IMG/VR virus record: IMGVR_UViG_3300031233_000027
Span: 1 to 25,309 of that record
Length of the DNA stretch: 25,309 nucleotides
Reading direction: 5' to 3' (one strand)
Source of the DNA: a virus
Taxonomy: Duplodnaviria > Caudoviricetes
The position numbers and the translations under genes are program-made. The notes beneath the pieces are model-generated. The model made no database searches. It was not told the DNA's origin and saw nothing but the letters and a program-made list of their open reading frames with translations. Positions 6,388 through 23,870 of the stretch are shown here, piece after piece; the first letter of the stretch is position 1, and the number at the start of each line of letters is the position of its first letter.

Positions 6388-8280
6388 TTATATTACCTCG
6401 CAATAGCCCGAAGAGCAAGCGTACTCTTGGGAGCCTGTTGTGTTGTCTTCTTGTTCGTAGGTCTTTAGCAAATCCCAATCGATCTGCTTGGGCATCCTAC
6501 TTACCCATTCGTTGTATTGTTCTTCTGTGATCTCTTGGTAGGGAGCCTGTCGATAGGTGTGTTCAGAATAGGGTAGAAAAGCCACACCAGAAAGAATATC
6601 GAAATTATCCCACACCCAAGATCCCACACCAATCCATTCATTTTCTTTTACATTCACCGTTATACTGGGTTTATGTTCACACCAATGTTCTTGGACATTA
6701 CGCCAGATTTCAAGGTGCTCGATTGCAGTGATATCCGACCTGCACAAACTAGCATCTGGGCTTGCGATGGGGAAAGAGAAGACAGCCGTATGGTCTGGGT
6801 TTGTGACATCTGGTTCAAAGGGTACACCTTGGTCAATTAGGAATGTGGTTAGCGGATCTTTTACATCTCCTCGTACCGTCCTAATATAAAAAGGACTATG
6901 CCGAGGGTGAATGCCAGAACTACTGTCCACCAACTGGGAGACGGTACCTGAAGGCTTAACACAAGTAATAGCCACAGACTGCTGAATACCAAGAGTAGTA
7001 GCCAGATTCTTATTTGTTGCAACTGCTATCTCCCGAAGGCGTTGGAGCCACAGACAACCTTCACCAGTTCGTCCGAGGATTGGGTGGTCGAGGATTCCGG
7101 TAAGGCTAACGCCAAGTAGACGTTCTTCTTCTGTATTTTTCCGCCAGCAACGTCTGAGATACGCAAACTGAGTAAGAGTGGACTGAAAGGTCCCAAGAAT
7201 GGTGGCCAGTCGCACTTTTCGTTCCAGGTCTGACAAGTTATCTCCAGATCGTACAACGACTTCAGTGAGGTTACAGAACTGATTAGGTCGAAGAATGATC
7301 TCGCTGCAAGGATTAGTCCCGTACTCGAAAGAGACATCTCGTCTGGCATTTCGACTAGCTTGTCGCACGCTTGCCTTACGGTTGAATATCCCTCGCTCCC
7401 CACTTTTACTGTCGTATAGAGATTGCCACTCTCGTAGGAATTCTCCGACGGATGGTTTTCCCAAGTACACCGCGCTGTTATTAGATAGACCTCGTTGTCC
7501 ATTCTGCTCCCACCAAGCTCCGTGCTTTGCCTGCCTTGCTCCTTCATCACTTAGATCGCTTAGACTGATCATGGCTGACCGTCTTACACCACCGACAACA
7601 ACAACCTCTGCAATCTTACACAAAAGATCGTGGCACTCTAGCGACGATAGTTGCCTTCCTCGGGCTCGATTACAAACTTCTGTAGCATAAGTAAATAACT
7701 CGACAAGCGGCTCAGGTCCGCTAGCACGACCCCCAAAAGTCTTGAGTCGAGCGCCTGCAGGCCGTACTCGCGAAACGTCCCATCCAGGTGTGTAACCCTC
7801 AAAGAGGTAACTGAGGAGGGTTCTAAGGGCTGATGCCCACCCTTCCTTACTGTCTGGTACTGTGACAATTGGTTGATCTTGTCCACCAATAGTTTCTCCG
7901 ATGGTTGGAAGTTGATCCACATATTTCTTTTCCACGCTGAAACCAACACCAGTCCCACAAAGTAGGATGTACATGGCCTCATCGAAGGCGCGTAGGTTGT
8001 CAACTACAAGATAAGCACAATTATAACCAGCTACGTGAGTCCTGTCAAGAGCTGGACCAGCAGTCATAAGACATCTCATTGATGGCATGACTTCTAGATT
8101 AATTATCGCATCTTCAATTTCAAGCCATTCTTTTGAACCTAGAGAACCACCTTTGGTGTAAAGCATCATCCAATCAATATAGCGTCGGACAGTTTCTTCC
8201 CAGGTTTCTCGTCGGTTCTCATCAGGTATCCACCTAGCGTAGCGACTTGTGTGTATAAATCTTTGATAATCAGTTAGAAT
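6388..8280 (-). CDS. nrdJ: Class II (adenosylcobalamin-dependent) ribonucleotide reductase, ~630 aa, inferred ATT start
   Basis: Motifs PSMR, YNCAY, GTGVGFSV, VVVGGVRRSAMISLS, GTNPCSEI, CVKPSGT and C-terminal CSSGYC. The frame extends 37 codons upstream of the track ORF through the typical YQRFIHTSRYARW..RRETWEETV N-terminus to ATT at 8280, with AGGAG 7 nt upstream. Confidence 0.93.
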   Translation of the reverse strand: MLTDYQRFIHTSRYARWIPDENRRETWEETVRRYIDWMMLYTKGGSLGSKEWLEIEDAIINLEVMPSMRCLMTAGPALDRTHVAGYNCAYLVVDNLRAFDEAMYILLCGTGVGFSVEKKYVDQLPTIGETIGGQDQPIVTVPDSKEGWASALRTLLSYLFEGYTPGWDVSRVRPAGARLKTFGGRASGPEPLVELFTYATEVCNRARGRQLSSLECHDLLCKIAEVVVVGGVRRSAMISLSDLSDEGARQAKHGAWWEQNGQRGLSNNSAVYLGKPSVGEFLREWQSLYDSKSGERGIFNRKASVRQASRNARRDVSFEYGTNPCSEIILRPNQFCNLTEVVVRSGDNLSDLERKVRLATILGTFQSTLTQFAYLRRCWRKNTEEERLLGVSLTGILDHPILGRTGEGCLWLQRLREIAVATNKNLATTLGIQQSVAITCVKPSGTVSQLVDSSSGIHPRHSPFYIRTVRGDVKDPLTTFLIDQGVPFEPDVTNPDHTAVFSFPIASPDASLCRSDITAIEHLEIWRNVQEHWCEHKPSITVNVKENEWIGVGSWVWDNFDILSGVAFLPYSEHTYRQAPYQEITEEQYNEWVSRMPKQIDWDLLKTYEQEDNTTGSQEYACSSGYCEVI

Positions 8281-8834
8281 AGGTTTTCTCCTGCTGGTTC
8301 AATATTAAAAGCTAGATCGAACCCTTTAAATTGTGGGTTAAGCCAGCCGTACTTATCTGCTTTCTTTTGTGCCCGTGCCAAGGACTTAGCAACTGCTTTA
8401 GGTTCTTTATTCTTGCTAATGTACTCAATAGTTTCATTCTGTACGGATTCAAAAGCCTTACGATGAATGAACATACCTTTATTGCTGAACACACCAAGAG
8501 TTAGACTATGATCAAAGGATTTGAAATGCTGCTTTGGGTCAATAAAGTGCACACCTATTAGTTGTATCCTATACACCCCATCAACTAGATAATCATAGAC
8601 AGATCCGATGTGATTACCATTACCTTGTTCATACTCATTCTGATTATCCTGATCAAGTTTTACCCAATTAGGTGGTAGAACTGGTAGACCAACCTGATAT
8701 GTATAAAAGATATCGTAGTCTTTCGGTTGAAGATGTACACTATATGCGTAGTCAACAACTGCTCCACCCATCAGAACAGAGTTCTTTGGGGCCTCAGAGA
8801 TCAATTTCATCCAGAGTTTCGGACCGTTCGCCAT
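8274..8834 (-). CDS. Pol-beta superfamily nucleotidyltransferase (CCA/poly(A) polymerase head-like)
   Basis: GGAVVD....PKDYDIF (GG-x-DxD) and a downstream FDHSL segment; AAGGA SD. Confidence 0.7.
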   Translation of the reverse strand: MANGPKLWMKLISEAPKNSVLMGGAVVDYAYSVHLQPKDYDIFYTYQVGLPVLPPNWVKLDQDNQNEYEQGNGNHIGSVYDYLVDGVYRIQLIGVHFIDPKQHFKSFDHSLTLGVFSNKGMFIHRKAFESVQNETIEYISKNKEPKAVAKSLARAQKKADKYGWLNPQFKGFDLAFNIEPAGENLF

Positions 8835-8943
8835 CCCAGTTCCTTTTGGGTTTCTGTCGTTGTTGTTTAGGTAGTTTCAGATCCTTATCAAAGTGATTCT
8901 GCCTACGCTGTCTTCTACGATCCTTAAGATCGAACTTGTTCAT
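8794..8943 (-). CDS. Small basic hypothetical protein (49 aa)
   Basis: MNKFDLKDRRRQRRQNHFDKDLKLPKQQRQKPKRNWDGERSETLDEIDL*. It fills the gap between neighbours and is below the track's length cutoff. Confidence 0.6.
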   Translation of the reverse strand: MNKFDLKDRRRQRRQNHFDKDLKLPKQQRQKPKRNWDGERSETLDEIDL

Positions 8944-9277
8944 ACCCTTGCTCAACGTCGTACTCCGATAGTTCCCAAATCTTGAGGCTAAGGAATTTAG
9001 CTAGTGCCACTTCTGCCGCAACCCCTTTTGACTTCTGCCACCCAGGAAGAAGAGCAATTGCGTCCGCTTCATTTGCAATATAATTGAGATCATCCATAAT
9101 CATACAACGCATAACCTTACCATCAAGTTCTAGTTTATCATAACCTTTTTGGCGATCATTATCCGCTGGACTAAAAACTTCATGTCCATGTTTTCTTAGT
9201 GTCAGGGCAGCCATATCAAAGGCTGGAAAGTTAAACTCTGGAATGCCTCTCATAGGGCCAGCTAGGTAGACGTTCAT
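8924..9277 (-). CDS. DUF4406 / nucleoside 2-deoxyribosyltransferase-like protein
   Basis: MNVYLAGPMRGIPEFNFPAF...VFSPA...DAIALLPGWQKSKGVAAE; GGAG SD before ATG 9277. Confidence 0.8.
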   Translation of the reverse strand: MNVYLAGPMRGIPEFNFPAFDMAALTLRKHGHEVFSPADNDRQKGYDKLELDGKVMRCMIMDDLNYIANEADAIALLPGWQKSKGVAAEVALAKFLSLKIWELSEYDVEQGYEQVRS

Positions 9278-9387
9278 TGGTTCTCCAATATTTCGAATAA
9301 CCAATACCACAATATTTGGTTTGGTTCTATATTTTTATGCCGGAAATAAGCATAACTACTCGTCCAATAATCAAGATTTTTGTTCAA
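9274..9387 (-). CDS. Possible small protein (37 aa, TTG start)
   Basis: MNKNLDYWTSSYAYFRHKNIEPNQILWYWLFEILENQ*; ends in an ATGA overlap with the next gene and fills the intergenic gap. Confidence 0.45.
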   Translation of the reverse strand: MNKNLDYWTSSYAYFRHKNIEPNQILWYWLFEILENQ

Positions 9388-9694
9388 GAATTAGTTCCAA
9401 ACGAGCTAGACTATTCCAGGCAACGTGGGCAGCATGTAGAAGTTCACTATCAGCATCACAAACCTCTCCAGATGCTTCCTTGAGCAGGTGTCGAGCCAGT
9501 GCGTCAGTGTAACGATTAAGTCCGTCTGGGACATGTCTCCAACCAGCCCAGGCATATTTTCTGGCACCAAATTCACTGACACGAGATAGTTCTTCAATTG
9601 CTCGCGGAAAGTATCCGATTGCTCCACGATAGACTGGAGCCTTTCCTTGGTCATACTTAACTGCGCCAGGTATTGACCCCTCGGCATCAGACAT
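9371..9694 (-). CDS. DUF5664-family (dATP/dGTP diphosphohydrolase-like) protein
   Basis: KYDQGK...FGARKYAWAGW...YTDALARHL...DADSELLHAAHVAWNSL pattern. Confidence 0.8.
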   Translation of the reverse strand: MSDAEGSIPGAVKYDQGKAPVYRGAIGYFPRAIEELSRVSEFGARKYAWAGWRHVPDGLNRYTDALARHLLKEASGEVCDADSELLHAAHVAWNSLARLELILEQKS

Positions 9695-9842
9695 TATCTT
9701 CCATCACACCAAATAGATTGGTTGGGTCTTCAATCGGTACGATCATAAAACCCCATTCAGCAAGTTCTCGTTCGAGAGTCTTAGCATCAAAGGGTTCGCC
9801 TTCGTAGATACGATCAATGATGTCATTCAGCATATCATCCAT
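9687..9842 (-). CDS. Small acidic hypothetical protein (51 aa)
   Basis: MDDMLNDIIDRIYEGEPFDAKTLERELAEWGF...; the likely start ATG 9842 lies just after the upstream stop. Confidence 0.55.
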   Translation of the reverse strand: MDDMLNDIIDRIYEGEPFDAKTLERELAEWGFMIVPIEDPTNLFGVMEDNV

Positions 9843-9843
9843 C

Positions 9844-10548
9844 TCAAACCTTCTTTCTGGCGCCTGTATGCCAAGAACCACAGTCAATGCACTGAAGTCG
9901 TTGTACTTTAAAAAACTTCGTCCTTCGAAATCCTCTAGATTGTACATGATTACTCCCACAAGCTCCACAAGCTCCCTTGTTATCCCCAAGATGCGGGTGA
10001 TCTTGAATGAAAGGTTTAATTCGCTGATAGAGATTAGCAGTTACCTTGACATCCTGAATACAATACTTCTGCATCCGCTTCTGGGCCTTGACATCGCCTT
10101 CAAGAACAGACCGCCAGAGTGCAAAGCCTTCATGCTTCATCTTAGATCCAACACCAAGTAAGGGGCCAATATAAGCCAACTTGGCCATCACAAATCCCAA
10201 GCCTTTTACGGTCTTAATCAAATCGATAGAGGTAGGTGGTGCAAAAGGTTTCAAACCCTCAAGCATTAGATGGCCTTTAATCTTAGGCAAATCATATCGA
10301 TTGCCGTTGTAAGTAATTACAGCGTCTGCCTCATCAAGAAGATTGCGAAGAACATATGCCATGTCTGTTGCACCATACTCCCACTTAGAGAGGAAGATGA
10401 ACTCTTTAGAGCCAACCCAATGAGCACAGAAGCAGAGAAGACCGCCGCTATCAATCAACTGATCAGGACTAATATTCTCATCATACATCCGCCAGACATA
10501 AGCCTTGGCAGGTGCCCATTCGATATCTATAACTAGGATTTTACTCAT
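9844..10548 (-). CDS. RNase H-like (DnaQ/RNase_H_2) 3'-5' exonuclease with C-terminal Zn ribbon
   Basis: MSKILVIDIE...ITYNGNRYDLP...YCIQDV; CGACG...CIDCG; AGGAG SD before ATG 10548. Confidence 0.85.
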   Translation of the reverse strand: MSKILVIDIEWAPAKAYVWRMYDENISPDQLIDSGGLLCFCAHWVGSKEFIFLSKWEYGATDMAYVLRNLLDEADAVITYNGNRYDLPKIKGHLMLEGLKPFAPPTSIDLIKTVKGLGFVMAKLAYIGPLLGVGSKMKHEGFALWRSVLEGDVKAQKRMQKYCIQDVKVTANLYQRIKPFIQDHPHLGDNKGACGACGSNHVQSRGFRRTKFFKVQRLQCIDCGSWHTGARKKV

Positions 10549-10891
10549 CAATCCACTCCTGGGGTACGACACCAACGGCCCACTTGTAGCCGTTCCGGTC
10601 TGCCCACTTCTCGTGGGTCTGCTTCTGAAAGGGAACTTTCTTGTTGGCCTCCATAAATAGGAAGCGAATGTCATGATCAGGATATTGTTTACGTACCGCA
10701 ATCATCTTGCGAATACTCTCCCGATCTAGTCTACCTTTGACTTCGATAATAATTCCGTTGTCTAGTATGAAGTCTGGATGATAAATTCCGTTTAAAGTGT
10801 AAGGAAGTTCCAAAGTCTCGTAGGTATATTTCACCCCACGAGACCTTAGATTGGCATCGACCGTGCGCTCGAAGCCTGACTTAAAAGCCAC
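10541..10891 (-). CDS. T7 endonuclease I-like Holliday junction resolvase
   Basis: FKSGFE...YTYE...YHPDFIL.NGIIIEVKG...WADRNGY; GTG start in a TAGTG overlap. Confidence 0.9.
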   Translation of the reverse strand: MAFKSGFERTVDANLRSRGVKYTYETLELPYTLNGIYHPDFILDNGIIIEVKGRLDRESIRKMIAVRKQYPDHDIRFLFMEANKKVPFQKQTHEKWADRNGYKWAVGVVPQEWIDE

Positions 10892-11316: not shown

Positions 11317-11738
11317 GTCTTGTAAAACTTCCCAGCTTCGCTCTGATTCAATATCAACAAATGACCACTATTAGGTTTAGGAAGCCCACCTCGAGATTGA
11401 ATGTACTTATTCAACCCTGGTGTCTTGTAAATAATGTCTCCGTACTCAGGTCCATCTTCTGTCATCATAACTGATTGATGATAACCTAGTACCGCGTTCT
11501 TAGTGATACAAACATTATCACGAGCTTCATCGACCAAGATAGTGCAAGCACTCAAACAAGGACCATCCACGATTACAGGCGTCTTGTCAGCAGCAAGTTG
11601 CCTACCTTGAGCGGCAAATAGATCGATGATACCACCAGGACTAAACTCAACCACACAGGGAACTGAGCAAGGGACCGGAGGATAACTAAAGTCAGACTGA
11701 CCTAGACCAAAAATCGAAAGAATAAGAAGACTAATCAT
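11310..11738 (-). CDS. Exported ClpP/crotonase-fold-like protein
   Basis: Signal-peptide-like N-terminus MISLLILSIFGLG; SPGG...VDGPCLSACT...LGYH motif. The exact start (11738-11750) is uncertain. Confidence 0.55.
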   Translation of the reverse strand: MISLLILSIFGLGQSDFSYPPVPCSVPCVVEFSPGGIIDLFAAQGRQLAADKTPVIVDGPCLSACTILVDEARDNVCITKNAVLGYHQSVMMTEDGPEYGDIIYKTPGLNKYIQSRGGLPKPNSGHLLILNQSEAGKFYKTC

Positions 11739-12009
11739 AAATATCATCACTCTCTTCTTCTTCCAATTCGTCGCACATCTGAGCGGCCTTAACGCGGCCA
11801 ATGGGTATAACAATATCAGGAACCGCACCGAGTTCTGTAGTCTTCATGATGGCAACGTGATGCGGGGTGAAGATCAGAAAACCCTCGGCGAACCATTCCA
11901 CATCTTCGATGTCTGTAATTACGTAATGATTACTCGGAAACTTAGCCTCTTCTTCCTTACCCTTACCACCATTAATGGTACCGAGATGAAAGATGTTATC
12001 GTCGTCCAT
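11731..12009 (-). CDS. Hypothetical protein with acidic tail
   Basis: 92 aa; AAGGA SD; in operon orientation. Confidence 0.7.
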   Translation of the reverse strand: MDDDNIFHLGTINGGKGKEEEAKFPSNHYVITDIEDVEWFAEGFLIFTPHHVAIMKTTELGAVPDIVIPIGRVKAAQMCDELEEEESDDIYD

Positions 12010-12024: not shown

Positions 12025-12861
12025 CTAGAAGTTCACTTTTTCGAATACCTTCGGTTCTCTTTTTACTGTCGTGAAAAACTTAGGGCCATTAGAATAAAGA
12101 AAGGTCCGAAGACCCAAACCACCATTGCTATCAGCCCAACAACGCCTCTTATGATCACAGTAGGAGCAATTTGTTCCAAGAACTCGGTTACCACTTGCTC
12201 CATCTTCTTCATCGGGGTAGCACCTTTCAGGTTCGACATCTGACTCAACAGCAGACTTTAAATAGTCAATACGTTCTTCAACATTAACTGTGGCAGCAAG
12301 TTCGTCCTTAGTGAATGGAAGATAAGCTAGGTGTCCGCTGACTTTGTCCATTGCAAGAAATGCACCGTCTGTGTTTCTTGCTTTACTATAACCGGCGATC
12401 TGTTCAATATAACCGAAGGCGTCGTCTTCAGCCAAAGATCCATTAGCGAACTTCTTAAACGAATAGGGGCTAGCACTCTTGACATCAACAGTTACTCCGT
12501 CGATGTCGGCGTCGATATGTCCTTTAATTCCTTGGATAGCCACTTCATCTTGGCGAGCCGTAACATTGTGGCCCGACACGCTGGCGAGGAATAGTAGGAC
12601 AGACTCTGTAATGTGGCCAACGAGGAACTTGAGGAGAGTGTGGCCTTTGAGTGGTTCTTCTGGTTCATATCTCTTTTGGTACCAAAGTTGACGTGCGCCT
12701 TTTCCGAGGTTGGACATACGAAGGGTGAATGGTCGTTTACCTTCTTCTAGACTGTCCCGGATAATGGTAGCAAGTTCAGACCCAAATTCAGTTGCTTCGG
12801 CGTCGGTAACTTGCTTACCATTTTCCAGGACAGAATAGATGTCATCTACTAAAGTTGAGAT
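12025..12861 (-). CDS. PD-(D/E)XK (Cas4/RecB-like) exonuclease, ~278 aa, inferred ATC start
   Basis: GHIDADIDGVTVDVKSAS, YIEQIAGY and CSYCDHKRRCW. The frame extends 48 codons upstream (ISTLVDDIYSVL...LRMSNLGK) to ATC 12861, which overlaps the SSB stop (TAATC), with GAGGA 9 nt upstream. Confidence 0.85.
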   Translation of the reverse strand: MSTLVDDIYSVLENGKQVTDAEATEFGSELATIIRDSLEEGKRPFTLRMSNLGKGARQLWYQKRYEPEEPLKGHTLLKFLVGHITESVLLFLASVSGHNVTARQDEVAIQGIKGHIDADIDGVTVDVKSASPYSFKKFANGSLAEDDAFGYIEQIAGYSKARNTDGAFLAMDKVSGHLAYLPFTKDELAATVNVEERIDYLKSAVESDVEPERCYPDEEDGASGNRVLGTNCSYCDHKRRCWADSNGGLGLRTFLYSNGPKFFTTVKREPKVFEKVNF

Positions 12862-13301
12862 TAAGCGACTTCCTCGGCCCAGGGCTTGTCATCTTCTCTA
12901 GTTGGGAATTCACCGCCTTCAAATGCTACCAAGTCCCAGACCTGAAGCGATAGAATATTAGCCGACTTCTGATTCTTACCATACTCGTTAATAGCAAAGT
13001 TGACATTGACCGTAGAACTATTACCGATCTTGGTCTTCGGATTCCACGCTTCACCATGATGGTCAACCACACGAATGGGTTGGTTCGGACTGCCGTCTTG
13101 CTTCAGTTCACGACGCTTGAAGGTCATATAAGGACCATTACCCTTGTCCTTGATCTTCTCTTTCAGACCTTCAACTTCCAGCCGATGAACAGTTTCCTCG
13201 TCGAGATACACATCAATGCTCCACTCCTTGTGAGCATTTTGATAACCCCAACCAGGTTCACCGGTAATCTTGGCCCACTTGGCCTTTCCACGAATGAGCA
13301 A
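12861..13301 (-). CDS. Single-stranded DNA-binding protein (T7 gp2.5-like)
   Basis: GKAKWAK...WSIDV...KIGNSSTVNV...LQVWDLVAFEGGEF and an acidic C-terminus; TTG start with AAGGAG; sits between polymerase and exonuclease. Confidence 0.75.
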   Translation of the reverse strand: MLIRGKAKWAKITGEPGWGYQNAHKEWSIDVYLDEETVHRLEVEGLKEKIKDKGNGPYMTFKRRELKQDGSPNQPIRVVDHHGEAWNPKTKIGNSSTVNVNFAINEYGKNQKSANILSLQVWDLVAFEGGEFPTREDDKPWAEEVA

Positions 13302-13387: not shown

Positions 13388-13416
13388 ATTGTACCTTATG
13401 ATACTTTACTTGTCAA
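13388..13416 (-). promoter_or_regulatory. Sigma70-type promoter upstream of SSB
   Basis: TTGACA (13416-13411), 17-nt spacer, TACAAT (13393-13388) on the minus strand, followed by an A-rich leader. Confidence 0.85.
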
Positions 13417-13627: not shown

Positions 13628-15457
13628 TCAATGGCACTCTGCCCAGTTGAGTCCAACTTTGTAGTTACCCGTGAGCGGGACTTTAAATCCAATAGCAAGC
13701 CCTGCACTTGTGATTGCGTCAACACAGGTCTTTCCAACTTCCTCAGAATCCTCGGTCTTTGCATCAAGTTGTCCTTCATCATGAATGTTACCCACATAGA
13801 AGCCATCAAGCCCGCGCCGTTTAATCTCATTACGGGCTATGATAGCCGCCTTCTTCATAACTATTGCCCCCGCACTTTGGAGCTTATAATTAAGGCTAGC
13901 GCTTTTGGAGTGGCACCTGACGAATCCCCCATCAATAGTTCGGAGAAGTCCGCCAGTTCCTCGAAACTCATCTTGGATATCTGCGACCAATCTGGCCAGT
14001 CCGGGCGTACCTTTTTCAAGGACTCCACGAGCCCATTTACCGTATGGTCCAGCTTCACCTTTACGAAGTTCAGGTTTAAGCGTGACTCCGAGTTTACCAT
14101 CTCCAGCTCCATAGAGATAAGCGTAGAATCCATTCTTGACCGTGAGATCACGCATTTCATCTGGGAGTTCGAGGTTTCTAGTGTTAAGGAGGTGGGGGTC
14201 TCCTGTAGTGAAGAGAAGGGTGGCCTCAGCATTGTTAAGATACTCAGCAAACATACGCATTTCAAGGCCGCTGGCATCATAGCCAACTTCTCGTCGGTTG
14301 GGTCTAGCTTGCCAGAGCCTTCGACATTCAATTCCATACTTTACCTTCTGCTTTGCCTTAGGGATATTGGCTGTGTTTGGACCAAAATGTGTCATCCGAC
14401 GGGTTGTTGCACCACAAGTCAGAACACTACCGTGCATACAACTGTCTTCATAGTTAACATTATTCAACCAAGTGTCAATCATAGATGACCGACCCTGAAG
14501 TACAAGCCATTCAGCAATAGCAGTTGCTTCAGGTCTTCTCGAACTCTCAGCGAACGCTAGAAGGCTTTCTTCGTCAACCTTGGGGAAACCCTTCTCAGTG
14601 AAATCTTGGGGTTCCCAACCTAGTCCAAGTAGGCGTTCTACTCTCTGCTTAGGCGATCCAATATTGAAGGCTTGCCAATCGAGAGTGCTGTAGGTTCCGT
14701 CTCCGTTTTCACGGAGTTCAGGATATGTTGCAAGGTGCCTGAGGCGGCTCGCATATTCTCCTCCGTCCGCTTTAACTCTTCGATTGTATGTTCCGACAAC
14801 TTCAAGCTTGGGTGGGAATAGCTCCAGTATTGGACCTTCCAGAGCTGCTTGCTCAGCTCGGAGTTGACCGACAAGAGATTGTGCACCTGGGATGTCAAAT
14901 GCCCAACCAGCTCGCTTTTGCTCATCTACTACCTCTCTGATTTCATGTTCAATTTCACAAGACAGCTCACTAAAACCAAGCCGCAACATACGCTGCCACA
15001 GAGCACGAGCCACTTTCTTTCCGAGCCGAACGTCTTGTTGGCAATACCTGTCCATTTCGGGGCTGTAGCCACTGAAGTCGTCGAACTGCCCTTTCGGGTC
15101 TCCAAGACGTTCGCCCCAAGCTTCCAGGCTGTGGCCGCCGCTGAGAGCAGGATCGTACAGGTATGAAAGAACAAGAGTGTCGACGATATTACCAGTGTGA
15201 ATGGGAGCGCCAACCAATCTCGCCGTGTGAGGTCCGTCGTAACTGATCGCGTTATGACCGACAAAATATACCCCCTGTCCCCGTAGTTCATCGAAAAATC
15301 TCCGTATCGCATCATGGCCAACGAAACTATGAACTTCATCAGAGTCCATTCGACTGGCACACATCATCCAAAGTTTAGATGGGTACAGGCTGTCTGCTTC
15401 GCAGTCTATGTACCAATATTTGTGATAGTCCTCAACGCGGGGAAGGTATTTTACCAT
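13628..15457 (-). CDS. polA: T7-like family A DNA polymerase with 3'-5' exonuclease
   Basis: Exo motifs IDCEAD, GHNAISYD, YCQQDV; motif A GYDASGLEMR; motif B KNGFYAYLYGAG; motif C NIHDE. Confidence 0.95.
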   Translation of the reverse strand: MVKYLPRVEDYHKYWYIDCEADSLYPSKLWMMCASRMDSDEVHSFVGHDAIRRFFDELRGQGVYFVGHNAISYDGPHTARLVGAPIHTGNIVDTLVLSYLYDPALSGGHSLEAWGERLGDPKGQFDDFSGYSPEMDRYCQQDVRLGKKVARALWQRMLRLGFSELSCEIEHEIREVVDEQKRAGWAFDIPGAQSLVGQLRAEQAALEGPILELFPPKLEVVGTYNRRVKADGGEYASRLRHLATYPELRENGDGTYSTLDWQAFNIGSPKQRVERLLGLGWEPQDFTEKGFPKVDEESLLAFAESSRRPEATAIAEWLVLQGRSSMIDTWLNNVNYEDSCMHGSVLTCGATTRRMTHFGPNTANIPKAKQKVKYGIECRRLWQARPNRREVGYDASGLEMRMFAEYLNNAEATLLFTTGDPHLLNTRNLELPDEMRDLTVKNGFYAYLYGAGDGKLGVTLKPELRKGEAGPYGKWARGVLEKGTPGLARLVADIQDEFRGTGGLLRTIDGGFVRCHSKSASLNYKLQSAGAIVMKKAAIIARNEIKRRGLDGFYVGNIHDEGQLDAKTEDSEEVGKTCVDAITSAGLAIGFKVPLTGNYKVGLNWAECH

Positions 15458-17058
15458 GAATGCTCAACTATTGTAGTTCCTCCGTTGTTGTACTGTATAA
15501 TCTGTTCTTTGTCTAGTTCTGTGAGTCGCCCGGTGAATTCGTTATAATGAAGGTAAGCGCCAGGACCAGTCCTGCCACAAAACCTGTTCTTTTCTACAAT
15601 AAGTTTCACCACATTACGCCTCCACGGGTCTTCGGAGAGACGTTCTCTATGAAGTTTGATTACAATATTGGCCAGTTGTTCCACACCAGCAGTGCCCCTA
15701 ATTTGACCCTGCCTATTCTGGTGTATTACAGCAAGTACCGCGATATTTAATTCCATTGTCAAAGTTTTGAGCTTAGTGCTAATCTCATCTAGTTGCTTAC
15801 GCTCATCCCCTGATTGATCAGACACGACAATACTAAGATGGTCCAAGATAATATACTTGCAACCAAGATTGTGCATATGGCGGACTTTATTGAGTATCTC
15901 CTGAATGGAGTTACTCCCGAAATGATCATAAATAACCAGCTTGTCAGTATTAACACTCCGATCAAAATACTCACGCATCTCCTCCTGTTTAATTGTGTCC
16001 CTTACATCTGGAAGATGGAGAGGTAGATTAGCCTCAAGTGACATCAAACCTAGTGCTGTGTCGCCGTTAGTCTCTTCCAGGTGAAGGAGTCCGATACCCG
16101 CATCGGGGCTAACCTTACGGATATTGAACTCTATTTCCTTGAGTACTGATGTCTTTCCAACACCTGTTTCCGCAGTGAAGACCACGAACTCCGAAAGCCT
16201 AATGCCGTATGTCTGAGTATTAAGCAAGTCCCAGGGATACGGTACTGTCTCATACGCCTTCCGTTCGCTGATCTCACCCCACATGTCGCGGCCAAGTTTG
16301 AGGCCGCTTGGAGTAAACGTCGGGCTGGACCACCATTCACGGTTGAACTGCTCCCGCTTACCAGCTTTAAGATAGTCGTTCGGGTCTTTGCCGTCTGCAA
16401 GAGTAAGAATCTTAACCTTGCCGATGGGGAACATACCAGCCACAGCAAGAGCCGCCTCTTGGCCGGGGTAACGGATTTGTCCCGTTCTCTCATTTACTTT
16501 CGGATCGTCCCTGTCGAAGCAGACAACGACGTTTGCAAAGCTGTTAAGGTATTCAAAGTTGTCTGCAACATCTCGACTAGCTCCGTCCGCTCCATATCGA
16601 ACAGACACGACCGGCCACCTGCTTCCCATGAGCTCAAATGCCGCGCAAGCGTCATATTCGCCTTCAACAATTGTAATGAACTTCGCACTACCTCCAGGAA
16701 AAAGCTGGCTTCCGAAGAGTCCGGAGTGTTTGATGTCACCTTCAACATTAAATTCTTTATCAGGGTGTCTGACCTTGTTTGCAAGGTGTTTTCCATCATT
16801 GAAATATGGGAAGTATGTCGTGTCACCATTACGCCAAATGCCATACTTCTCAGCACTGGCGCGGGATATCTTTCGATCAGTTAAATCTTTGTAGTCTTTA
16901 CCGAGTTCTGTGAGGATATTACTGTCCTCCTTCTTATTGTTATTCGGAAATGTCGTGTTACCGCAACTGAAGCAATGAGTGTGTCCATCATCATACAAAG
17001 AATTGGCATCACTACTATCACATTCGTTACAGGCAATGTGCCTTAGAAACTGACTTAT
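15451..17058 (-). CDS. T7 gp4-like primase-helicase, ~535 aa, inferred ATA start
   Basis: Zn finger HIACNECDSSDANSLYDDGHTHCFSC, whose first CxxC lies upstream of the track ORF; TOPRIM EGEYD/CFDRD; Walker A AETGVGKT; ILDHLSIV; KNRFCGRTG. Confidence 0.93.
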   Translation of the reverse strand: MSQFLRHIACNECDSSDANSLYDDGHTHCFSCGNTTFPNNNKKEDSNILTELGKDYKDLTDRKISRASAEKYGIWRNGDTTYFPYFNDGKHLANKVRHPDKEFNVEGDIKHSGLFGSQLFPGGSAKFITIVEGEYDACAAFELMGSRWPVVSVRYGADGASRDVADNFEYLNSFANVVVCFDRDDPKVNERTGQIRYPGQEAALAVAGMFPIGKVKILTLADGKDPNDYLKAGKREQFNREWWSSPTFTPSGLKLGRDMWGEISERKAYETVPYPWDLLNTQTYGIRLSEFVVFTAETGVGKTSVLKEIEFNIRKVSPDAGIGLLHLEETNGDTALGLMSLEANLPLHLPDVRDTIKQEEMREYFDRSVNTDKLVIYDHFGSNSIQEILNKVRHMHNLGCKYIILDHLSIVVSDQSGDERKQLDEISTKLKTLTMELNIAVLAVIHQNRQGQIRGTAGVEQLANIVIKLHRERLSEDPWRRNVVKLIVEKNRFCGRTGPGAYLHYNEFTGRLTELDKEQIIQYNNGGTTIVEHSW

Positions 17059-17276
17059 TTTATAATGGCCTCATAGTAAACATAAAAAAGACCGTGCCAA
17101 TATGCTCTGAGATTTTTGTTAGGATAAGCTACTCTAAGAGCTTTGTTCATTTCGGAACAGCGTTCATTATTTGTTAATCCAGACGGGACGTTGATAATTC
17201 TAATCTGACTACCTGGTAAAAGGTTACCTGCCTCAATAAGCCAATGACTCCAATCAGTTTTTACGGTAATTGTCAT
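17055..17276 (-). CDS. Hypothetical protein
   Basis: 73 aa; AAGGA SD; its stop overlaps the inferred primase start. Confidence 0.65.
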   Translation of the reverse strand: MTITVKTDWSHWLIEAGNLLPGSQIRIINVPSGLTNNERCSEMNKALRVAYPNKNLRAYWHGLFYVYYEAIIK

Positions 17277-18014: not shown

Positions 18015-18165
18015 GATTGATCTCCCTTACAGTATAACCACGTTTGGCAAGAGCAATTCGAAGATTTTGAAGGTCGTCCCAAGTACGTTGAAGATATTCA
18101 ATAGCTTCAATTTTGTTACCCTCCTCGGCAATATTGTTAATGAATGCGGCATTGTATTTAGCCAC
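17968..18165 (-). CDS. Hypothetical protein
   Basis: 65 aa; AGGAG SD before GTG. Confidence 0.7.
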   Translation of the reverse strand: MAKYNAAFINNIAEEGNKIEAIEYLQRTWDDLQNLRIALAKRGYTVREINRAQDSGTFDGQVRQS

Positions 18166-18394
18166 TTATCGCTCTCCTTATTAGGGGATCAAACTGCGCA
18201 AGACGGATAGCGGACAAACTAGGGGCTTTGTTATAACCATTCCAATGATCTTGGTGGCGAAAGACTTGCCCAGCAACAGCGCTCTTAGTTATACCGAGCT
18301 TATTTGCACACTTACTAAATGAAAGACCAAAATAACGTAGGTCACGCAAAATGAGAAGTTGCTCTTTAGACCAATCAGGCCGTTGCTTGTTCAT
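18158..18394 (-). CDS. gcrA: GcrA-like HTH regulator (N-terminal domain only)
   Basis: WSKEQLLILRDLRYFGLSFSKCANKLGITKSAVAGQVFRH parallels the GcrA N-terminus (W.DE....L..LW..GLSASQIA..LG.VTRNAVIGKVHR); ATGA overlap at 18391-18394. Confidence 0.7.
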   Translation of the reverse strand: MNKQRPDWSKEQLLILRDLRYFGLSFSKCANKLGITKSAVAGQVFRHQDHWNGYNKAPSLSAIRLAQFDPLIRRAISG

Positions 18395-18528
18395 CCCCAA
18401 CCATCTTCAATAAGATCTTCATCTTGCTCTTCTTCATTAAAATATTCAACAGTTTCCTGTATAATCTCACTACAAGAAAGACAGTCCCAAAAACTATTAG
18501 TATCACGATCACAAATCGGGCAGCGCAT
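18391..18528 (-). CDS. Small Zn-finger protein with acidic tail (45 aa)
   Basis: MRCPICDRDTNSFWDCLSCSEIIQETVEYFNEEEQDEDLIEDGWG*; GGAG SD; TAATG and ATGA overlaps at its two ends. Confidence 0.75.
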   Translation of the reverse strand: MRCPICDRDTNSFWDCLSCSEIIQETVEYFNEEEQDEDLIEDGWG

Positions 18529-18902: not shown

Positions 18903-18909
18903 TGGTCCA

Positions 18910-19791
18910 CTACCAACCGAGATTGAGGTTGCGGATACCACTTCCAATTCCGGCCACGGAAGCAGGGGCGGCAACCCACAATCCAGGTCCAGCTTGTTGT
19001 TCTGCGGGCTTATGATCATAGGCAATTGCCTTCGGTTTAATACCGGTTCGTAAACTTTCTGCAAGACCTCTGAGGGCGACGCCGTACTGCTGAACAGTTG
19101 TCCCTTCGATGCCCGGTGCAGTATTAGCTTCCAGGACATAAAAATCTCCCTTTTTGTCCTCGATGATATCCAGACCACCAAAATCCAAGCCCAGCGCCTT
19201 GATGGTCTGTATTGCCAAGGCGTCGCGTTTAGCACTAGGAATTATGTTCTTGCGCTGAAAGATAAAACCATTTTGCCAGGAACGAACTTTCCAGCTAACA
19301 ACTTCACGCTTAGGGTCACGGACCTTTTGTTGGGTGTCAATAATATCATATGGCGTTGCATGAACGCGAAATTCCTTTTCCTTGAAAATGTATTGGGTGT
19401 AGAGGGGAGCTTCTATGAGCTCATTACCTGGCTCTACTATTACAATACCATCGCCTTCATGGCCTGTCAAGGTCTTCCGGGCCACAACCGTCTTGCCAGA
19501 AGCCAGCCACTCCTTGGCCACAGCCTTATTAGCTGTCCAAGGAACTGTGGGTATATTCTTTCCCGCCAGCATCTGAAATGTCATTAGCTTATTAACAGCC
19601 TTAGCAACCGCACCCGGTTGATTTAGTGGCCGAAATTTAGTAACTGCAATAGCAGCGCGACATTTACCCCAGTTAACAATCACATCGTCCGGCTTAACAA
19701 CCTTATTAAGATGAAGACGACGAAAACCCTCCTCTTTAGCGAGCAAGGCGGCTCCGTCGGACGGTCGGCCACTGTAAATCCAAATGGTCAT
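18910..19791 (-). CDS. ATP-grasp peptide ligase (RimK-like, phiEco32 type)
   Basis: IVNWG, AVNKL, GHEGDGI, EFRVH, LGLDFGGLDII, VLEANTAPG. Confidence 0.92.
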   Translation of the reverse strand: MTIWIYSGRPSDGAALLAKEEGFRRLHLNKVVKPDDVIVNWGKCRAAIAVTKFRPLNQPGAVAKAVNKLMTFQMLAGKNIPTVPWTANKAVAKEWLASGKTVVARKTLTGHEGDGIVIVEPGNELIEAPLYTQYIFKEKEFRVHATPYDIIDTQQKVRDPKREVVSWKVRSWQNGFIFQRKNIIPSAKRDALAIQTIKALGLDFGGLDIIEDKKGDFYVLEANTAPGIEGTTVQQYGVALRGLAESLRTGIKPKAIAYDHKPAEQQAGPGLWVAAPASVAGIGSGIRNLNLGW

Positions 19792-20657
19792 TCGGTCAAA
19801 GCCCCTTCATTCCACGCAGAACAGAACGCCAAATCTTGAGCGATCCTCATGCCGTCTCGCAACATCTCTTCAAATCCAGCAACCTTAAGATACTTGATAG
19901 CATATGGCCCAAGAGAATTCTTCAGGAATTCAGTCGAGTCCATCATGCTGAATTGCTGGATGATTGCAGTAGGATTTTGAAATGTCCTAGCCCTTTCCTT
20001 GATCTGCTGGAGGGTACCAATCCAATGCATAAGACGACCCTCATGCAATGTGCATTCCAAGGACCGATACTCAATACTGCCAAACTTCAACAGACTGGCG
20101 AAATTAATTGAACTATAGCGATTATTCTGTTGAATACCGAAGAAGTCTGAACCCTGGGAAATGGAGTTTACAAGTTCAACAATTTGTCCCATCGCATCCT
20201 TGGCGCGGAAACAGAAATTATTACCAACTCTGTGTTCTCCGTTCTGAGACACTAGAAGTTCGTCAAGTATCACAGACAACACCATCGAATTGTAGATGGT
20301 TCTGAATGATTCTTGAGAATAATTAACGTGAACATGGATTGAAGTCCGGTACGAGTCGAACACCTCAACCCCTGGACCGGTAAGGTAACCAAACAGAAGT
20401 TGGATAGCTTTCTCAGTATTTTTCAAATTATATGGTGAACGACTGACGTACTCAACAGCCTGAGATCCTGGTACGATTTTCCGAAGACTGCCATCATTAT
20501 GTTGAGCCCACAAAATCTTAACCCGCTCTTCAGGGCTCATAATATTCTTGCCTTCGAGCTCAACTTCAATACCGAAAACGTCTGTCACACTAGCCGCATT
20601 CGCAATAGGAATATGACGAGTTAAGGTGTCGTCCAGTTTCATTCTCTTTGTAAGCAT
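19788..20657 (-). CDS. Putative amidoligase (glutamine-synthetase-like fold)
   Basis: FGIEVELEG, HNDGSLR, EYVS, RTSIHVHVN, RYSSINFASLLKFGSIEYR. Confidence 0.88.
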   Translation of the reverse strand: MLTKRMKLDDTLTRHIPIANAASVTDVFGIEVELEGKNIMSPEERVKILWAQHNDGSLRKIVPGSQAVEYVSRSPYNLKNTEKAIQLLFGYLTGPGVEVFDSYRTSIHVHVNYSQESFRTIYNSMVLSVILDELLVSQNGEHRVGNNFCFRAKDAMGQIVELVNSISQGSDFFGIQQNNRYSSINFASLLKFGSIEYRSLECTLHEGRLMHWIGTLQQIKERARTFQNPTAIIQQFSMMDSTEFLKNSLGPYAIKYLKVAGFEEMLRDGMRIAQDLAFCSAWNEGALTE

Positions 20658-21286
20658 TATGCGAGAGCCTCCTGCAATGCTTCATTGAGGTGTTTGTACT
20701 CATTCAAAATCTTGTACTCACCAAGATTACCATTAAGACTTACGCCAACCTTGGTACCACGATATTCAAGAATAAAATCCTGGTGGATGTAATCATACGA
20801 CAATGCGAAATCCTTATGAAAAGCAATAGTCTTAGCTTCTTTGTCTTTCAAGACCTTTTCGACAACAGGAATTTCAGGATAAACATTCTCTAGCATATTT
20901 ACATACGGACGTGAAAAATTGAAATTCTCTTCTGGCATCATAACATTTTCTGAAGATGAAAAGCCGAGTTGGGAACGAATCAAACCCTGCCGATATTGCT
21001 TGATTGGTTTTCTATACCACCAAAGACAGTGATTATTAGTATTGGCATAACCAATATTGTACTTCTTATATGTGAACGCTTTGTCTTCGAGATTTATATT
21101 TTTATTGCGCATATTGAAAGCACAGACGACTAGACGAAACTTATCTGGAATCTGTTCACTGTTATTAGGATCTATCTGATGACTAACTTGCTTGACGAAA
21201 ACAGCTTTATTCTCATAATAACAGATAGTTTGACTGAACTTGGAACTAACGTCTTCTAGGTTGTCGAACTGTATTTCCTTAGGCAT
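20657..21286 (-). CDS. Hypothetical protein within the ligase cluster
   Basis: 209 aa; TAATG-coupled on both sides. Confidence 0.75.
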   Translation of the reverse strand: MPKEIQFDNLEDVSSKFSQTICYYENKAVFVKQVSHQIDPNNSEQIPDKFRLVVCAFNMRNKNINLEDKAFTYKKYNIGYANTNNHCLWWYRKPIKQYRQGLIRSQLGFSSSENVMMPEENFNFSRPYVNMLENVYPEIPVVEKVLKDKEAKTIAFHKDFALSYDYIHQDFILEYRGTKVGVSLNGNLGEYKILNEYKHLNEALQEALA

Positions 21287-22128
21287 TAAGCCGCCTTAAG
21301 TAGTGTTAGTGGATCCAAGTGCAAGTCACACTCGGGATAGTGTTCAGGCCAATCAACATCATTGGTGTTGATCACAGTCTGTGCGATGTCACCATAGTTG
21401 TCCTCGGCCCAGAGCCCGCTAAAGCCGTCGGCCATAGCGACCTGAGTAGTGTTATAGACCCAACGCATCAATGGGTCTGAATCCAACCATCTATTTGAGA
21501 GAACGCGATACTCCAACCCGTAGGATTTCGGACGAAACGCACCCGCTTTCCCGTATAGTGAACGACGAACCGGGTCTTTATCCCAAAAAAGTGAATACAT
21601 CCCAAGATAGTAGTCCAACTGACGTGCAAAACGACAACAAAGCATGAACCAATCTTTATCCTCAATGTCTTTGTCCTCTGTCCAACCAATGTGAATGTGC
21701 CCGCTAGCGGTCCTGAAAGGCTCCCCAGCGGGATCGGGGGCCGGATTGGTAGTCATGGTCCAGCCACTATAGTCAGGGTTACAGCCGAGCTCCTGGGCAT
21801 GACTAGGGACTTGAAACTTGAAGTAGTCTGGCTCAAACCGAGCAACAGGTTCAGCCACAACATTATAGCCGGGGACCATATTGATCATGGTGTTCATAAC
21901 GGATTGAATATTGTGAACAAACTCATCACAGGTTTTAGCAGGATCAATGTTAAACTCAAGTGCGGTTCCGTCAATTTGGACCGCCCCAAATGGAACTTTG
22001 TGAGGTTCCCACTTAGTTCCGGGAATTCTTGGTCCATGTTCCAGGTCGTCAGCAGACACAAAAGCACCCGTATTAGGGTTACGCATAAAGAGTTCTGGGT
22101 CGCAACCGACCAATACTGTTGATTTCAA
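21286..22128 (-). CDS. phiEco32-like COOH-NH2 ligase type 2
   Basis: VGCDPELFM, QIDGTALEFN, GCNPDY, RTASGHIHIG, RRSLYGKAGAFRPKSYGLEYRVLSN; TTG start with AAGGA SD. Confidence 0.92.
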   Translation of the reverse strand: MKSTVLVGCDPELFMRNPNTGAFVSADDLEHGPRIPGTKWEPHKVPFGAVQIDGTALEFNIDPAKTCDEFVHNIQSVMNTMINMVPGYNVVAEPVARFEPDYFKFQVPSHAQELGCNPDYSGWTMTTNPAPDPAGEPFRTASGHIHIGWTEDKDIEDKDWFMLCCRFARQLDYYLGMYSLFWDKDPVRRSLYGKAGAFRPKSYGLEYRVLSNRWLDSDPLMRWVYNTTQVAMADGFSGLWAEDNYGDIAQTVINTNDVDWPEHYPECDLHLDPLTLLKAA

Positions 22129-22140
22129 CTCTTGTTTCCT

Positions 22141-23214
22141 TCACATCACATGTCGGAGGGTTTCATAGCAATCAACATCGCCATAACAAACTTCACACAT
22201 GAATGGAGTATTCTTGGCCCCATTCCAGTTACCCATTATCTGAATAAAGTCACCCCATTCTTGACTGTTGTCATTACAGAACGCACAGCCTTCGGCAACC
22301 ATGTGCTCAAACTGCTGCTTGTTGATGGTGTGGCCGTAGATGTCTTTGTATGGGGGGCGAAATCGCTTGGTATCGAATTTTTGATTAAACGATAGAACAT
22401 TGCTATCACTCTTCTTATAACCAGCAAACGTCTTCACCGTCGTCGTAGTTGTAGCCCCACCTGTAAAAGGGACTGTGGCATAAACACATGACTTCCCTTC
22501 AACTTTAGACTGCTCGGGACTGTCAAATTTCTTGGTAACAACCGTGGGGACTTTCCACTTATAATGGGTGTCCTTGGTTATCGTGAAGAACTCGTCGCCT
22601 TCCGTTTTCTTGCGACGACGACCTAGAACGTACTTAAGCATCTCAGGTTCAGACGCCCAAATAAGCGTGCAACGATCTGCAGAATAGCAATAGTGAAGTG
22701 GTCGCTTGTCATTACGCAGGAAGTTTAGGGTTCCGTCTCGCTTGTCAAACCACGTAAGAGCCCAAGCGCCAGTCACACGCTTCATGGTTTCAACAACACC
22801 AACTTCATTTATTGTCGAAAAAATGGCCTGACTGTCTGTGTCATAGAGATTCGCATCATGAAGATTTTTAATAGTAAATTTGTCAAGCGTACCATTATGA
22901 GCACCCATAACATGTTCAAAAGCGAATGGATGAGCATTCTCTTCAGTGTGAGCCCCAAGAGTGGCATATCTGTTATGCCCTATGAGAACTTTAACAGGAT
23001 TATTGATGTCCATAGCGTCTTCGAACGCCTTGGAGTGAAACAAGTTGAAAGGGTGTCCGGGCGCTCTTGCTAGAGTGAACTCGTTCGTGGCTCTGTGAAC
23101 AAATCCAGCACCAGTTGAGTGTGCACCTCTAACACTGTCAACTAGTAGTAGTTCATTAAAAACGTCTTTCCAACTTCCATAAATGTCTCCCGCGACTCCG
23201 ACTAGCCCGCAAAT
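22141..23214 (-). CDS. Class II (Ntn) glutamine amidotransferase, ~357 aa, inferred ATT start
   Basis: ATT-TGC-GGG-CTA-GTC-GGA gives (M)CGLVG with AGGAG 8 nt upstream; RGAHSTG, GHNRYAT, NAHPF, GAHNGT, TDSQ; C-terminal CAFC/CEVC. Confidence 0.92.
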   Translation of the reverse strand: MCGLVGVAGDIYGSWKDVFNELLLVDSVRGAHSTGAGFVHRATNEFTLARAPGHPFNLFHSKAFEDAMDINNPVKVLIGHNRYATLGAHTEENAHPFAFEHVMGAHNGTLDKFTIKNLHDANLYDTDSQAIFSTINEVGVVETMKRVTGAWALTWFDKRDGTLNFLRNDKRPLHYCYSADRCTLIWASEPEMLKYVLGRRRKKTEGDEFFTITKDTHYKWKVPTVVTKKFDSPEQSKVEGKSCVYATVPFTGGATTTTTVKTFAGYKKSDSNVLSFNQKFDTKRFRPPYKDIYGHTINKQQFEHMVAEGCAFCNDNSQEWGDFIQIMGNWNGAKNTPFMCEVCYGDVDCYETLRHVM

Positions 23215-23870
23215 TGCAAACTCTCCTGCATGAATTCTGACATTAGTTCAAAACAATAATCAGCAAAACGAGAACCGGGAACATATTCTGGATGACCCTG
23301 AATGCAGAGGGTCCGGGTTTGCGGATACCAAACGATCTCAGTGTCCTTGTGGTCGTCTGGGTAGAAAAGACTATGCCCAGCTTCCCAATGATCAGGATTC
23401 GCAAGCTTTCTGGTTGATTCGTCAGCCGTTGCAATGACAACACCAGTCTTGTAATTGGGTCGCATCATCTGGTGGTGTGTGCTGGTGGCTCTGATCTTTT
23501 CACCAGTTCGGGTGTCAACGATCATATGGTCGCGAGTGTGACGATCAACATCTTGCCAGAGGGTGCCACCATTAAGGCAATTGAGAAGTTGAGCTCCACG
23601 ACAGATACCAAGTTTGAAAGTATTCGGAAAACGATTAAAGATGGCAATCTCTTCTTCATCACGACGAGACGGTTCGAACGGAACACCACGATAAGCCGGT
23701 CGTTCGTGGTAGATTTTGGTACCAATATCGGCACCGCCGTTAAAGACAATCAAAGTAGCAGACTCGGGATCTTTGATAGGACGCATACCAATTCCACGGA
23801 AAAGATGGCTGGAACTGTCCAAACCACCATATTCGTTAAGGCTAGTAAACGGCATGTCTTTAAAGTTCAT
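23202..23870 (-). CDS. Class I glutamine amidotransferase / peptidase C26 (gamma-glutamyl hydrolase-like)
   Basis: GGADI, LGICRGAQLLN, STHHQ and IQGHPE give a Cys-His-Glu triad; start is 23870 or 23855. Confidence 0.88.
   Translation of the reverse strand: MNFKDMPFTSLNEYGGLDSSSHLFRGIGMRPIKDPESATLIVFNGGADIGTKIYHERPAYRGVPFEPSRRDEEEIAIFNRFPNTFKLGICRGAQLLNCLNGGTLWQDVDRHTRDHMIVDTRTGEKIRATSTHHQMMRPNYKTGVVIATADESTRKLANPDHWEAGHSLFYPDDHKDTEIVWYPQTRTLCIQGHPEYVPGSRFADYCFELMSEFMQESLQFAG

Follow-up and report, generated by a model that had tools for sequence, protein, structure and literature searches.

Weak start codons on the replication enzymes of an uncultured Zobellviridae-like phage as a probable fixed limit on enzyme output

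The stretch of DNA analysed here, hereafter the window, covers 25,309 nucleotides (nt) of the viral record IMGVR_UViG_3300031233_000027 and is part of an uncultured podovirus-like genome of ~47-50 kb with convergent arms. By Pfam and PHROG matches, its minus arm encodes a phiEco32-type amidotransferase/ligase module, a primase-helicase, a family A polymerase, a single-stranded DNA-binding protein (SSB), an exonuclease, an endonuclease, a lysin and a class II reductase. Four of these genes, all on the minus strand, have conserved sequence running up to an ATT, ATC or ATA codon (collectively ATH) and not to a canonical ATG, GTG or TTG. The first is nrdJ, which encodes a class II (B12-type) ribonucleotide reductase (6388..8280) of 630 amino acids (aa) from ATT 8280, matching PHROG 367 over residues 5-629 and carrying the Pfam RNR-II insertion domain. 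The second is a Cas4-domain exonuclease (12025..12861; PHROG 1990) of 278 aa from ATC 12861, and the third a T7-type primase-helicase (15451..17058) of 535 aa from ATA 17058, matching PHROG 239 from residue 2. The fourth is a class II, N-terminal nucleophile (Ntn) glutamine amidotransferase (22141..23214; Pfam GATase_6) of 357 aa from ATT 23214. Its Cys at position 2 is invariant (9/9 aligned), and its profile matches the GlmS and PurF structures.

Each of these codons stands behind a Shine-Dalgarno (SD) sequence and overlaps the end of the preceding gene. At nrdJ (8278..8292), AGGAG lies 7 nt before ATT, the overlap with the upstream stop is 7 nt and the SD pairing is -7.4 kcal/mol. At the exonuclease (12859..12875), GAGG lies 10 nt before ATC, which has one base in common with the SSB stop (TAATC). 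At the primase (17056..17072), GAGG lies 10 nt before ATA, with a 4-nt ATAA overlap, and at the amidotransferase (23212..23227) AGGAG lies 8 nt before ATT, which starts 13 nt inside the class I amidotransferase gene. An in-frame TGA is found 6 (nrdJ), 9 (exonuclease), 4 (primase) and 11 (amidotransferase) codons above, no ATG, GTG or TTG intervenes, and the first such codon is 37, 48, 20 and 57 codons further downstream, respectively. The codons, the SD spacers and the TAATC, ATAA and ATTCTAA geometries are thus all as a preliminary description of this DNA had given them. The overlap, which it also pointed out, holds for all four starts but does not set them apart, as 23/30 tabulated minus-arm junctions overlap, 19/26 among non-ATH genes (a table counted by hand, with three uncertain start choices). 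Likewise, SD strength at the four sites, scored with one generic anti-SD, ranges from -5.6 to -7.7, like that of other window genes.

We then compared the stretches that a start at the first canonical codon would skip with those of 6-7 relatives per gene. Identical residues amounted to 20-26 of 36 in nrdJ, 19-32 of 46-47 in the exonuclease, 10-13 of 19 in the primase and 25-42 of 56 in the amidotransferase, and the proportion of nonsynonymous differences (pN, 0.21-0.45) was well below that of synonymous ones (pS, 0.66-1.34). These stretches are under purifying selection, as is the rest of each gene, so that the conserved N-termini noticed earlier are confirmed for all four genes. For the primase, translation from the first canonical codon would halve the zinc finger, with loss of its first Cys pair. 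Public gene calls are short for three of the four (primase 515 vs 535 aa, exonuclease 230 vs 278, reductase 593 vs 630).

Such codons might also arise from an artefact (sequencing error or pseudogenes) or from recoding (ATH translated as Met, or read-through of TGA), and the fact that the upstream in-frame stop is TGA at all four genes would fit the last of these. However, for each site 4-6 other public contigs (one of which may be the window's own source) agree with the window in all 63 bases surrounding the codon. Moreover, Logan contigs from four further runs cover the codons (among the listed pieces, nrdJ in 2 runs, exonuclease in 4, primase in 2 and amidotransferase in 3) with no alternative letter listed at any of them, at the level of contigs, not raw reads. 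Selection on the skipped stretches speaks against pseudogenes. Reading ATH as Met was rejected since internal ATT, ATC and ATA codons align mostly to Ile (166/245, 119/191 and 55/94) and ATG to Met (106/167). TGA read-through was rejected as well, because it gains no canonical start for nrdJ or the exonuclease and would place extra residues ahead of the amidotransferase Cys; in addition, TGA terminates real genes in this genome. Finally, the amidotransferase gene shows no slippery site, and most of its family do not overlap an upstream gene; neither a frameshift fusion nor a propeptide was therefore retained. We regard artefact and recoding as practically negligible.

To place the four genes in their clade, ten related records were retrieved and the eight close ones compared (G009 and G010 were left out), using hand-picked gene families, 19 from the replication arm and 15 from the virion arm. 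A copy was scored as lacking a canonical start if ATG, GTG and TTG were all absent between the upstream stop and a point 5 codons beyond the first conserved column. By this rule, 18/144 replication-arm copies lacked one, against 0/115 virion-arm copies (Fisher p = 2e-5, for copies that are not independent). The rule misses one real case, the ATT of the G003 amidotransferase. An earlier anchoring rule, which gave 21/144 vs 10/115 (p = 0.18), was abandoned; its 10 virion cases were anchors placed before the ATG or more than 40 codons after it. Every one of the eight genomes has 1-4 near-cognate cases. They affect the primase (5), the exonuclease (4), the amidotransferase (2, or 3 by eye), a gene that we take from its sequence to be ThyX-like (2) and, once each, nrdJ, the polymerase, the endonuclease, the phosphoesterase and a deoxynucleoside triphosphatase. 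An SD of -5.6 or stronger precedes 84% of the 19 scored near-cognate starts, compared with 13% of 2542 internal near-cognate codons.

The codons used at these starts are ATT, ATC, ATA, CTG and ACG, and the presence of CTG and ACG indicates that the habit is not specific to ATH. The systematic ATH initiation of core enzymes put forward in the preliminary description is therefore borne out across the clade, only not as a property of ATH alone. As to whether relatives keep ATH, the answer is mixed. A record 99.9% identical to the window across 22 kb (G001) has the same four codons. The nearest relatives L030 and L031 start the exonuclease with ATA at the same position, and L031 also starts nrdJ with ATT; other relatives start nrdJ at the same or the next codon with ATG, GTG or TTG, and across genes the switches extend to CTG and ACG. 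Primases without canonical start number 10/23 in close (window copy included) vs 0/41 in distant loci, and exonucleases 7/15 (window copy included) vs 0/47; for nrdJ the figures are 4/41 and 1/24 in the two locus sets. The distant phages L074, L076 and L061 also have an nrdJ without canonical start (ATA, ATA and CTG, respectively, behind an SD). On the other arm, the scaffold, the major capsid and most virion genes start with ATG, in line with the earlier remark on plus-arm genes except that the large terminase starts with TTG in 7/8 genomes (G001 and relatives; L184:7125-8549 in G001), behind a conserved TAAAGG. Together, these data show that the near-cognate starts are confined to the non-virion arm and that the codon is labile among relatives.

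The amidotransferase provides a clean read-out of this lability, because the Cys fixes its start. From 207 loci with a match we dropped 52 duplicates, 6 without N-terminus and 3 at contig ends, which left 146 rows, reduced to 138 at 90% identity. In these non-redundant phage proteins, the catalytic Cys is preceded by ATG in 87, ATT in 23, TTG in 12, ATC in 11 and GTG in 5, and by nothing else. Since Leu before Cys is always TTG and Val always GTG, this is an initiation codon and not a propeptide residue. In a cellular control, 83 true GlmS among 120 loci matching the pattern (which favours GC-rich genomes), we counted ATG 82, GTG 1 and ATT/ATC 0/83. In a quickly built tree of these 138 sequences, ATH and NTG interchanged at least 29 times, with 15 independent pairs on well-supported branches. 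Even near-identical proteins differ in codon, such as K4 (ATC) and PA11 (TTG), or Klyazma (ATC), Asterion (ATT) and L346 (TTG), or L381 (ATT) and L383 (ATG). Among 21 cultured records chosen from 316 matches, SU10 being added by accession, 8 have ATT/ATC, 2 TTG and 11 ATG. The gene is annotated at ATT in phiEco32, SU10 and Bas88, whereas in O4, K4, Klyazma, Asterion and BUCT695 it is annotated short and the catalytic Cys is lost. In Klyazma an HNH nuclease gene (L199:40659-41093) is the immediate upstream neighbour of the amidotransferase with its ATC start; in Asterion the start region is almost the same and follows a different gene.

The surroundings of the start also differ within the family. 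First, the median SD is -8.95 for ATH and -6.0 for ATG amidotransferases. Second, there is more structure before ATH than before ATG starts (median z -0.95 vs 0.1), with only 3/34 reaching z -2, and a small hairpin immediately ahead of the SD is present at many free-standing ATH sites. In the window, this hairpin is absent at the exonuclease, primase and amidotransferase sites and weak at nrdJ. Third, 5/33 ATT/ATC against 39/84 ATG amidotransferases overlap the upstream gene, a difference that is not significant in the independent pairs. Thus, translation only by coupling, one of the options raised at first, fails as a family rule, even though the overlap is 4/4 in the window, where coupling may help. 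Re-initiation is itself reported to be IF3 (initiation factor 3)-sensitive (PMC2268962).

The overlaps bear on a further explanation, namely that these enzymes are needed in small amounts, that coupling rescues near-cognate codons and that ATG decays by drift, often forced by the coding of the upstream gene in another frame. Several features fit such a scenario. Nearly all minus-arm genes overlap, codon lability is high, and replacing ATGA by ATAA leaves the upstream stop intact. The primase starts inside the end of the phosphoesterase gene in most relatives, in several within its last codons, where a Tyr or Asn codon plus the next base fixes ATA, ATC, ATT or ATG. The window retains a relic of this overlap, although a 73-aa orphan gene (17055-17276, minus strand) has been inserted between phosphoesterase and primase. 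That the start site newly acquired after this insertion is weak again counts for the tuning of output favoured below. Against drift, however, 28/33 ATT/ATC amidotransferases overlap nothing. Drift would also be expected to yield the transitions ATA, ACG and GTG, whereas the family shows mainly the transversions in the counts above, with GTG at 5 and ATA and ACG at 0 (ATA may be barred before Cys, as ATA followed by TG makes an out-of-frame ATG). Besides, overlapping small genes and SSB never lose their canonical start (SSB 0/32). We conclude that drift and dual coding account for some phosphoesterase-embedded primase starts, yet they explain neither the free-standing amidotransferase sites nor the transversion excess, and as a general account they are quite unlikely.

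Taking these observations together, we favour the view, with a probability of roughly 0.63, that the weak start codons are a fixed dial holding enzyme output low and not an on/off switch. This is the down-tuning of expression that the preliminary description had offered as its more modest option, and it fits the data best. In this mechanism the host fMet-tRNA would read ATT, ATC and ATA behind an ordinary SD at a fraction of the AUG rate, ATH, CTG, ACG, TTG and GTG being interchangeable settings of one dial. The replication arm would be transcribed as long polycistronic messages, probably from strong host promoters, and the dial would keep enzymes that are catalytic or harmful (primase-helicase, exonuclease, reductase and amidotransferase, as well as terminase) far under the level of virion proteins. 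In the window, ribosomes ending the overlapping upstream gene probably assist the weak starts, while in many relatives a stronger SD plus the small hairpin before it would take the place of the overlap. A degree of sensitivity to host IF3 and to the nutrient state would then arise as a side effect. From the pattern as a whole we infer initiation at the ATH codons themselves, low output, selection for it and help from coupling.

Two predicted promoters on the minus strand agree with this mechanism. A perfect sigma-70 consensus (24966..24993; 12/12 matches) lies upstream of the amidotransferase/ligase module and a near-consensus site (13388..13416; 11/12) upstream of the pair formed by SSB (TTG) and exonuclease (ATC); a similar site precedes SSB in 4/9 genomes. 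With such sites in front, the messages are probably abundant and polycistronic. Another perfect match inside nrdJ (8020-8048, minus strand) was set aside as a by-product of the conserved peptide LDRTHVAGYNC, since at most 2/8 genomes preserve the match in their DNA. Near-cognate rates are given as 0.1-3% of AUG in Escherichia coli (10.1101/063800) and as ~10% in Staphylococcus aureus, once 30% (PMC13009471).

Several points weigh against a fixed dial. Every affected gene also exists in an ATG version, in many cases behind a weaker SD, so that the net output of both versions may be alike, and the link between ATH and stronger SD is not significant in the independent pairs (median p 0.375). Since the genomes behind the comparison of arms are related, their gene copies do not count as independent. 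In none of the 138 rows is the amidotransferase Cys preceded by ACG or CTG, which simple tuning leaves unexplained. For the ATT-started amidotransferase of SU10, 9 mass-spectrometry peptides are reported in a phage preparation vs 2 for DNA polymerase (PMC4281155; N-terminus unmapped), so that output need not be very low. More generally, the role of non-AUG starts has been argued to go, in many cases, beyond limiting output (PMC5499595).

A related possibility is that the weak starts sense the state of the host without any phage factor, having been selected since AUU/AUC initiation drops further in starved or cold cells (through IF3 and guanosine tetraphosphate, ppGpp) and so throttles the replication enzymes. 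AUU messages are described as competing poorly in the cold, and nutrient limitation and ppGpp as hitting non-AUG starts hardest (PMC5499595), while the AUA start of S. aureus ccpN is reported to go from ~10% to 30% in rich medium (PMC13009471). That the near-cognate codons of the amidotransferase are solely ATT and ATC, often with a hairpin before the SD, would suit such sensing, as would the habitat: all 24/24 listed runs carrying the phage, including those holding it best, are peat metagenomes, and no RNA run is among them. Yet a regulatory codon should be conserved, as is the GTC of Streptomyces sigR in the published account (PMC5472188), and the amidotransferase codon is anything but that. 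Furthermore, the affected gene set varies from genome to genome, and phages of fast-growing hosts (E. coli, Klebsiella and Pseudomonas) have ATH starts too. Host sensing as the selected function thus appears unlikely.

The preliminary description had gone further and suggested that the genes may be gated until a phage product relaxes initiation fidelity, by IF3 titration or ribosome modification; remodelling of the 30S subunit is another route of this kind. Here the codon lability argues against an obligatory gate, as the codon flips among ATG, TTG, GTG, CTG, ACG and ATH in close relatives. No IF3-like or ribosome-binding family was found in Pfam or PHROG among the window proteins and the G001 early proteins selected by eye. 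The ATP-grasp/amidoligase module, in turn, is equally present in genomes with an ATG-started amidotransferase. The PHROG label "ribosomal protein S6 glutaminyl transferase" seen in this context is a family name only.

The best candidate for a gating factor is a 92-aa acidic protein encoded directly after the exonuclease (11731..12009, minus strand), predicted to form an Sm-like five-stranded barrel (predicted local distance difference test score, pLDDT, 77.6). Its gene follows the exonuclease in 15/15 close vs 0/63 distant loci, matching the distribution of near-cognate exonuclease and primase starts, and the structures matching its model are mostly Hfq, LSm and the C-terminal domain of RimP. 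Immature 30S subunits have been reported to escape IF3 scrutiny (PMC6868393), and a noncanonical start under IF3 repression has a precedent in sigR (PMC5472188). However, the co-occurrence stems from one clade and amounts to a single event. The fold scores are generic: the best Z (5.3) belongs to an unrelated cytochrome, the Hfq and LSm matches stay at Z 4.6 or less with no E below 0.001, and the best Hfq match (Z 4.6) has a root-mean-square deviation of 4.1 over 53 aligned residues. By sequence, the protein matches no Hfq/LSm-type family in Pfam or the PDB and none of 50,697 cultured-phage records; its family is small (54 matches at 50% clusters). It is also strongly acidic (22 Asp plus Glu vs 6 Lys plus Arg; net charge strongly negative in 14/14 members), with no N-terminal helix predicted. 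Moreover, its gene lies downstream of three of the four ATH genes. Many phages that lack it have an ATH amidotransferase, while the window's own 20-row branch has only 3 ATH, and L137 has a CTG primase without the 92-aa gene after its exonuclease. From the model, the protein is a weak candidate for a translation-related factor, and gating by it or by another early protein seems to us highly improbable.

The primase may hold a second unusual start. At 16915..16932 (minus strand), AAGGAGG lies 8 nt before an in-frame ATC (16917, codon 48), just after the zinc finger. Its SD (-11.7) is the strongest among the in-frame candidates of the gene, and an SD of -7 or stronger occurs at this place in 6/23 relatives vs 7% of other windows. 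Because the linker is rich in Lys and Glu, the SD could be due to chance. Bacteriophage T7 makes a helicase-only form of its primase, gp4B, and by comparison ATC 16917 might, as a putative start, give such a form here. One can also conceive a broader control layer in which starts rejected by IF3 on replication enzymes are relaxed during infection by host state or by the Sm-like protein (11731-12009), timing replication without a phage RNA polymerase, to which ATC 16917 may add the helicase-only primase. We hold this to be very unlikely.

How does the fixed dial compare with known systems? The closest likeness is the homologous Ntn amidotransferase of phiEco32 (phi32_83, NC_010324.1), SU10 (SU10_085, KM044272.1) and Bas88 (Bas88_0074, PQ850628.1), which lies in the same module and is annotated with ATT directly before Cys. 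In phiEco32, however, it alone of 102 annotated leftward genes starts with ATH, while the window has four such genes, and it lies 79 nt from the upstream gene with a hairpin before the SD, unlike the window's four overlapping sites. The best cultured amidotransferase matches (38-43%) are the Zobellviridae phages O4, K4 and PA11 of Pseudomonas, Klyazma and Asterion of Klebsiella, and CVT22, with which the window shares module order and convergent arms. CVT22 starts this gene with TTG, like PA11, and O4 with ATC, like K4 and Klyazma. In contrast to the window, the amidotransferase is the sole near-cognate start in O4 (19 genes inspected) and Klyazma (15), and the records of these cultured phages shorten the ATH genes.

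In bacteria, SD-led AUU/AUA initiation lowering output is described for E. coli infC and pcnB (AUU) and for S. aureus cvfC1, ccpN, citZ and infC. Those are presented as single conserved genes, infC with a feedback loop, whereas here several enzymes per genome carry a labile codon. Autoregulation of the infC type does not apply, given that the discriminating factor is not among the four enzymes encoded. As in the window, the GTC of sigR is a noncanonical start, which sets the stoichiometry of a coupled pair through IF3 (PMC5472188). That codon is conserved and was tested, unlike the phage codon, which is known here from sequence and shows at least 29 changes and swaps between near-identical proteins.

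As to the rest of the genome, the closest cultured matches of the window are Zobellviridae-type phages at ~40% identity, and its polymerase-side genes are only ~40% like any cultured phage. From gene order, size (42-53 kb) and best matches, we call the genome Zobellviridae-like. The phiEco32-type module (18910..23870, minus strand) comprises class I and class II amidotransferases, a COOH.NH2 ligase, an amidoligase and an ATP-grasp enzyme by Pfam/PHROG matches, in a gene order identical to that of Pseudomonas phage O4. A small GcrA-like protein (18158-18394, minus strand; Pfam 26.8 bits, just below the 26.9 cut-off) might act in cell-cycle or transcription control. GcrA is typical of Alphaproteobacteria, and the gene hints at an alphaproteobacterial host. 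A hairpin of twelve pairs with T-runs on both flanks (5809-5838), between the convergent arms, is likely a two-way terminator. A long (CAACCA)n repeat encoding a Gln-Pro run (23919-24000, minus strand), near the end of a 329-aa gene, is 18 bases shorter in G001, a record with no tRNA genes. The KTSC-domain early gene of G001 (L184:2005-2328) is present in 6/8 close genomes, and in G002 the nrdJ reductase (L111-L113) lies in two frames with ~220 extra bases, possibly an intron.

SD-led AUU/AUC/AUA starts were already known, and so was the amidotransferase case, which is annotated at ATT in RefSeq (phiEco32) and GenBank (SU10, Bas88). In this respect, the pattern had been partly recorded for relatives. 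For several enzymes at once we found no report of a phage clade with interchangeable near-cognate starts on replication enzymes sparing virion genes, in a search that did not extend to the original phiEco32 genome paper, which may mention the ATT. Near-cognate starts are put at ~0.05% of annotated bacterial genes (10.1101/063800), against 12% of replication-arm copies in this clade and 25% of phage amidotransferases. Public gene calls shorten the proteins that begin in this way, to the point that five cultured records lose a catalytic Cys. Finally, cultured near-twins, such as K4 or O4 (ATC) and PA11 (TTG), together with phiEco32, SU10 and Bas88 (ATT) in E. coli, make it testable whether these starts limit output or sense the ribosome.

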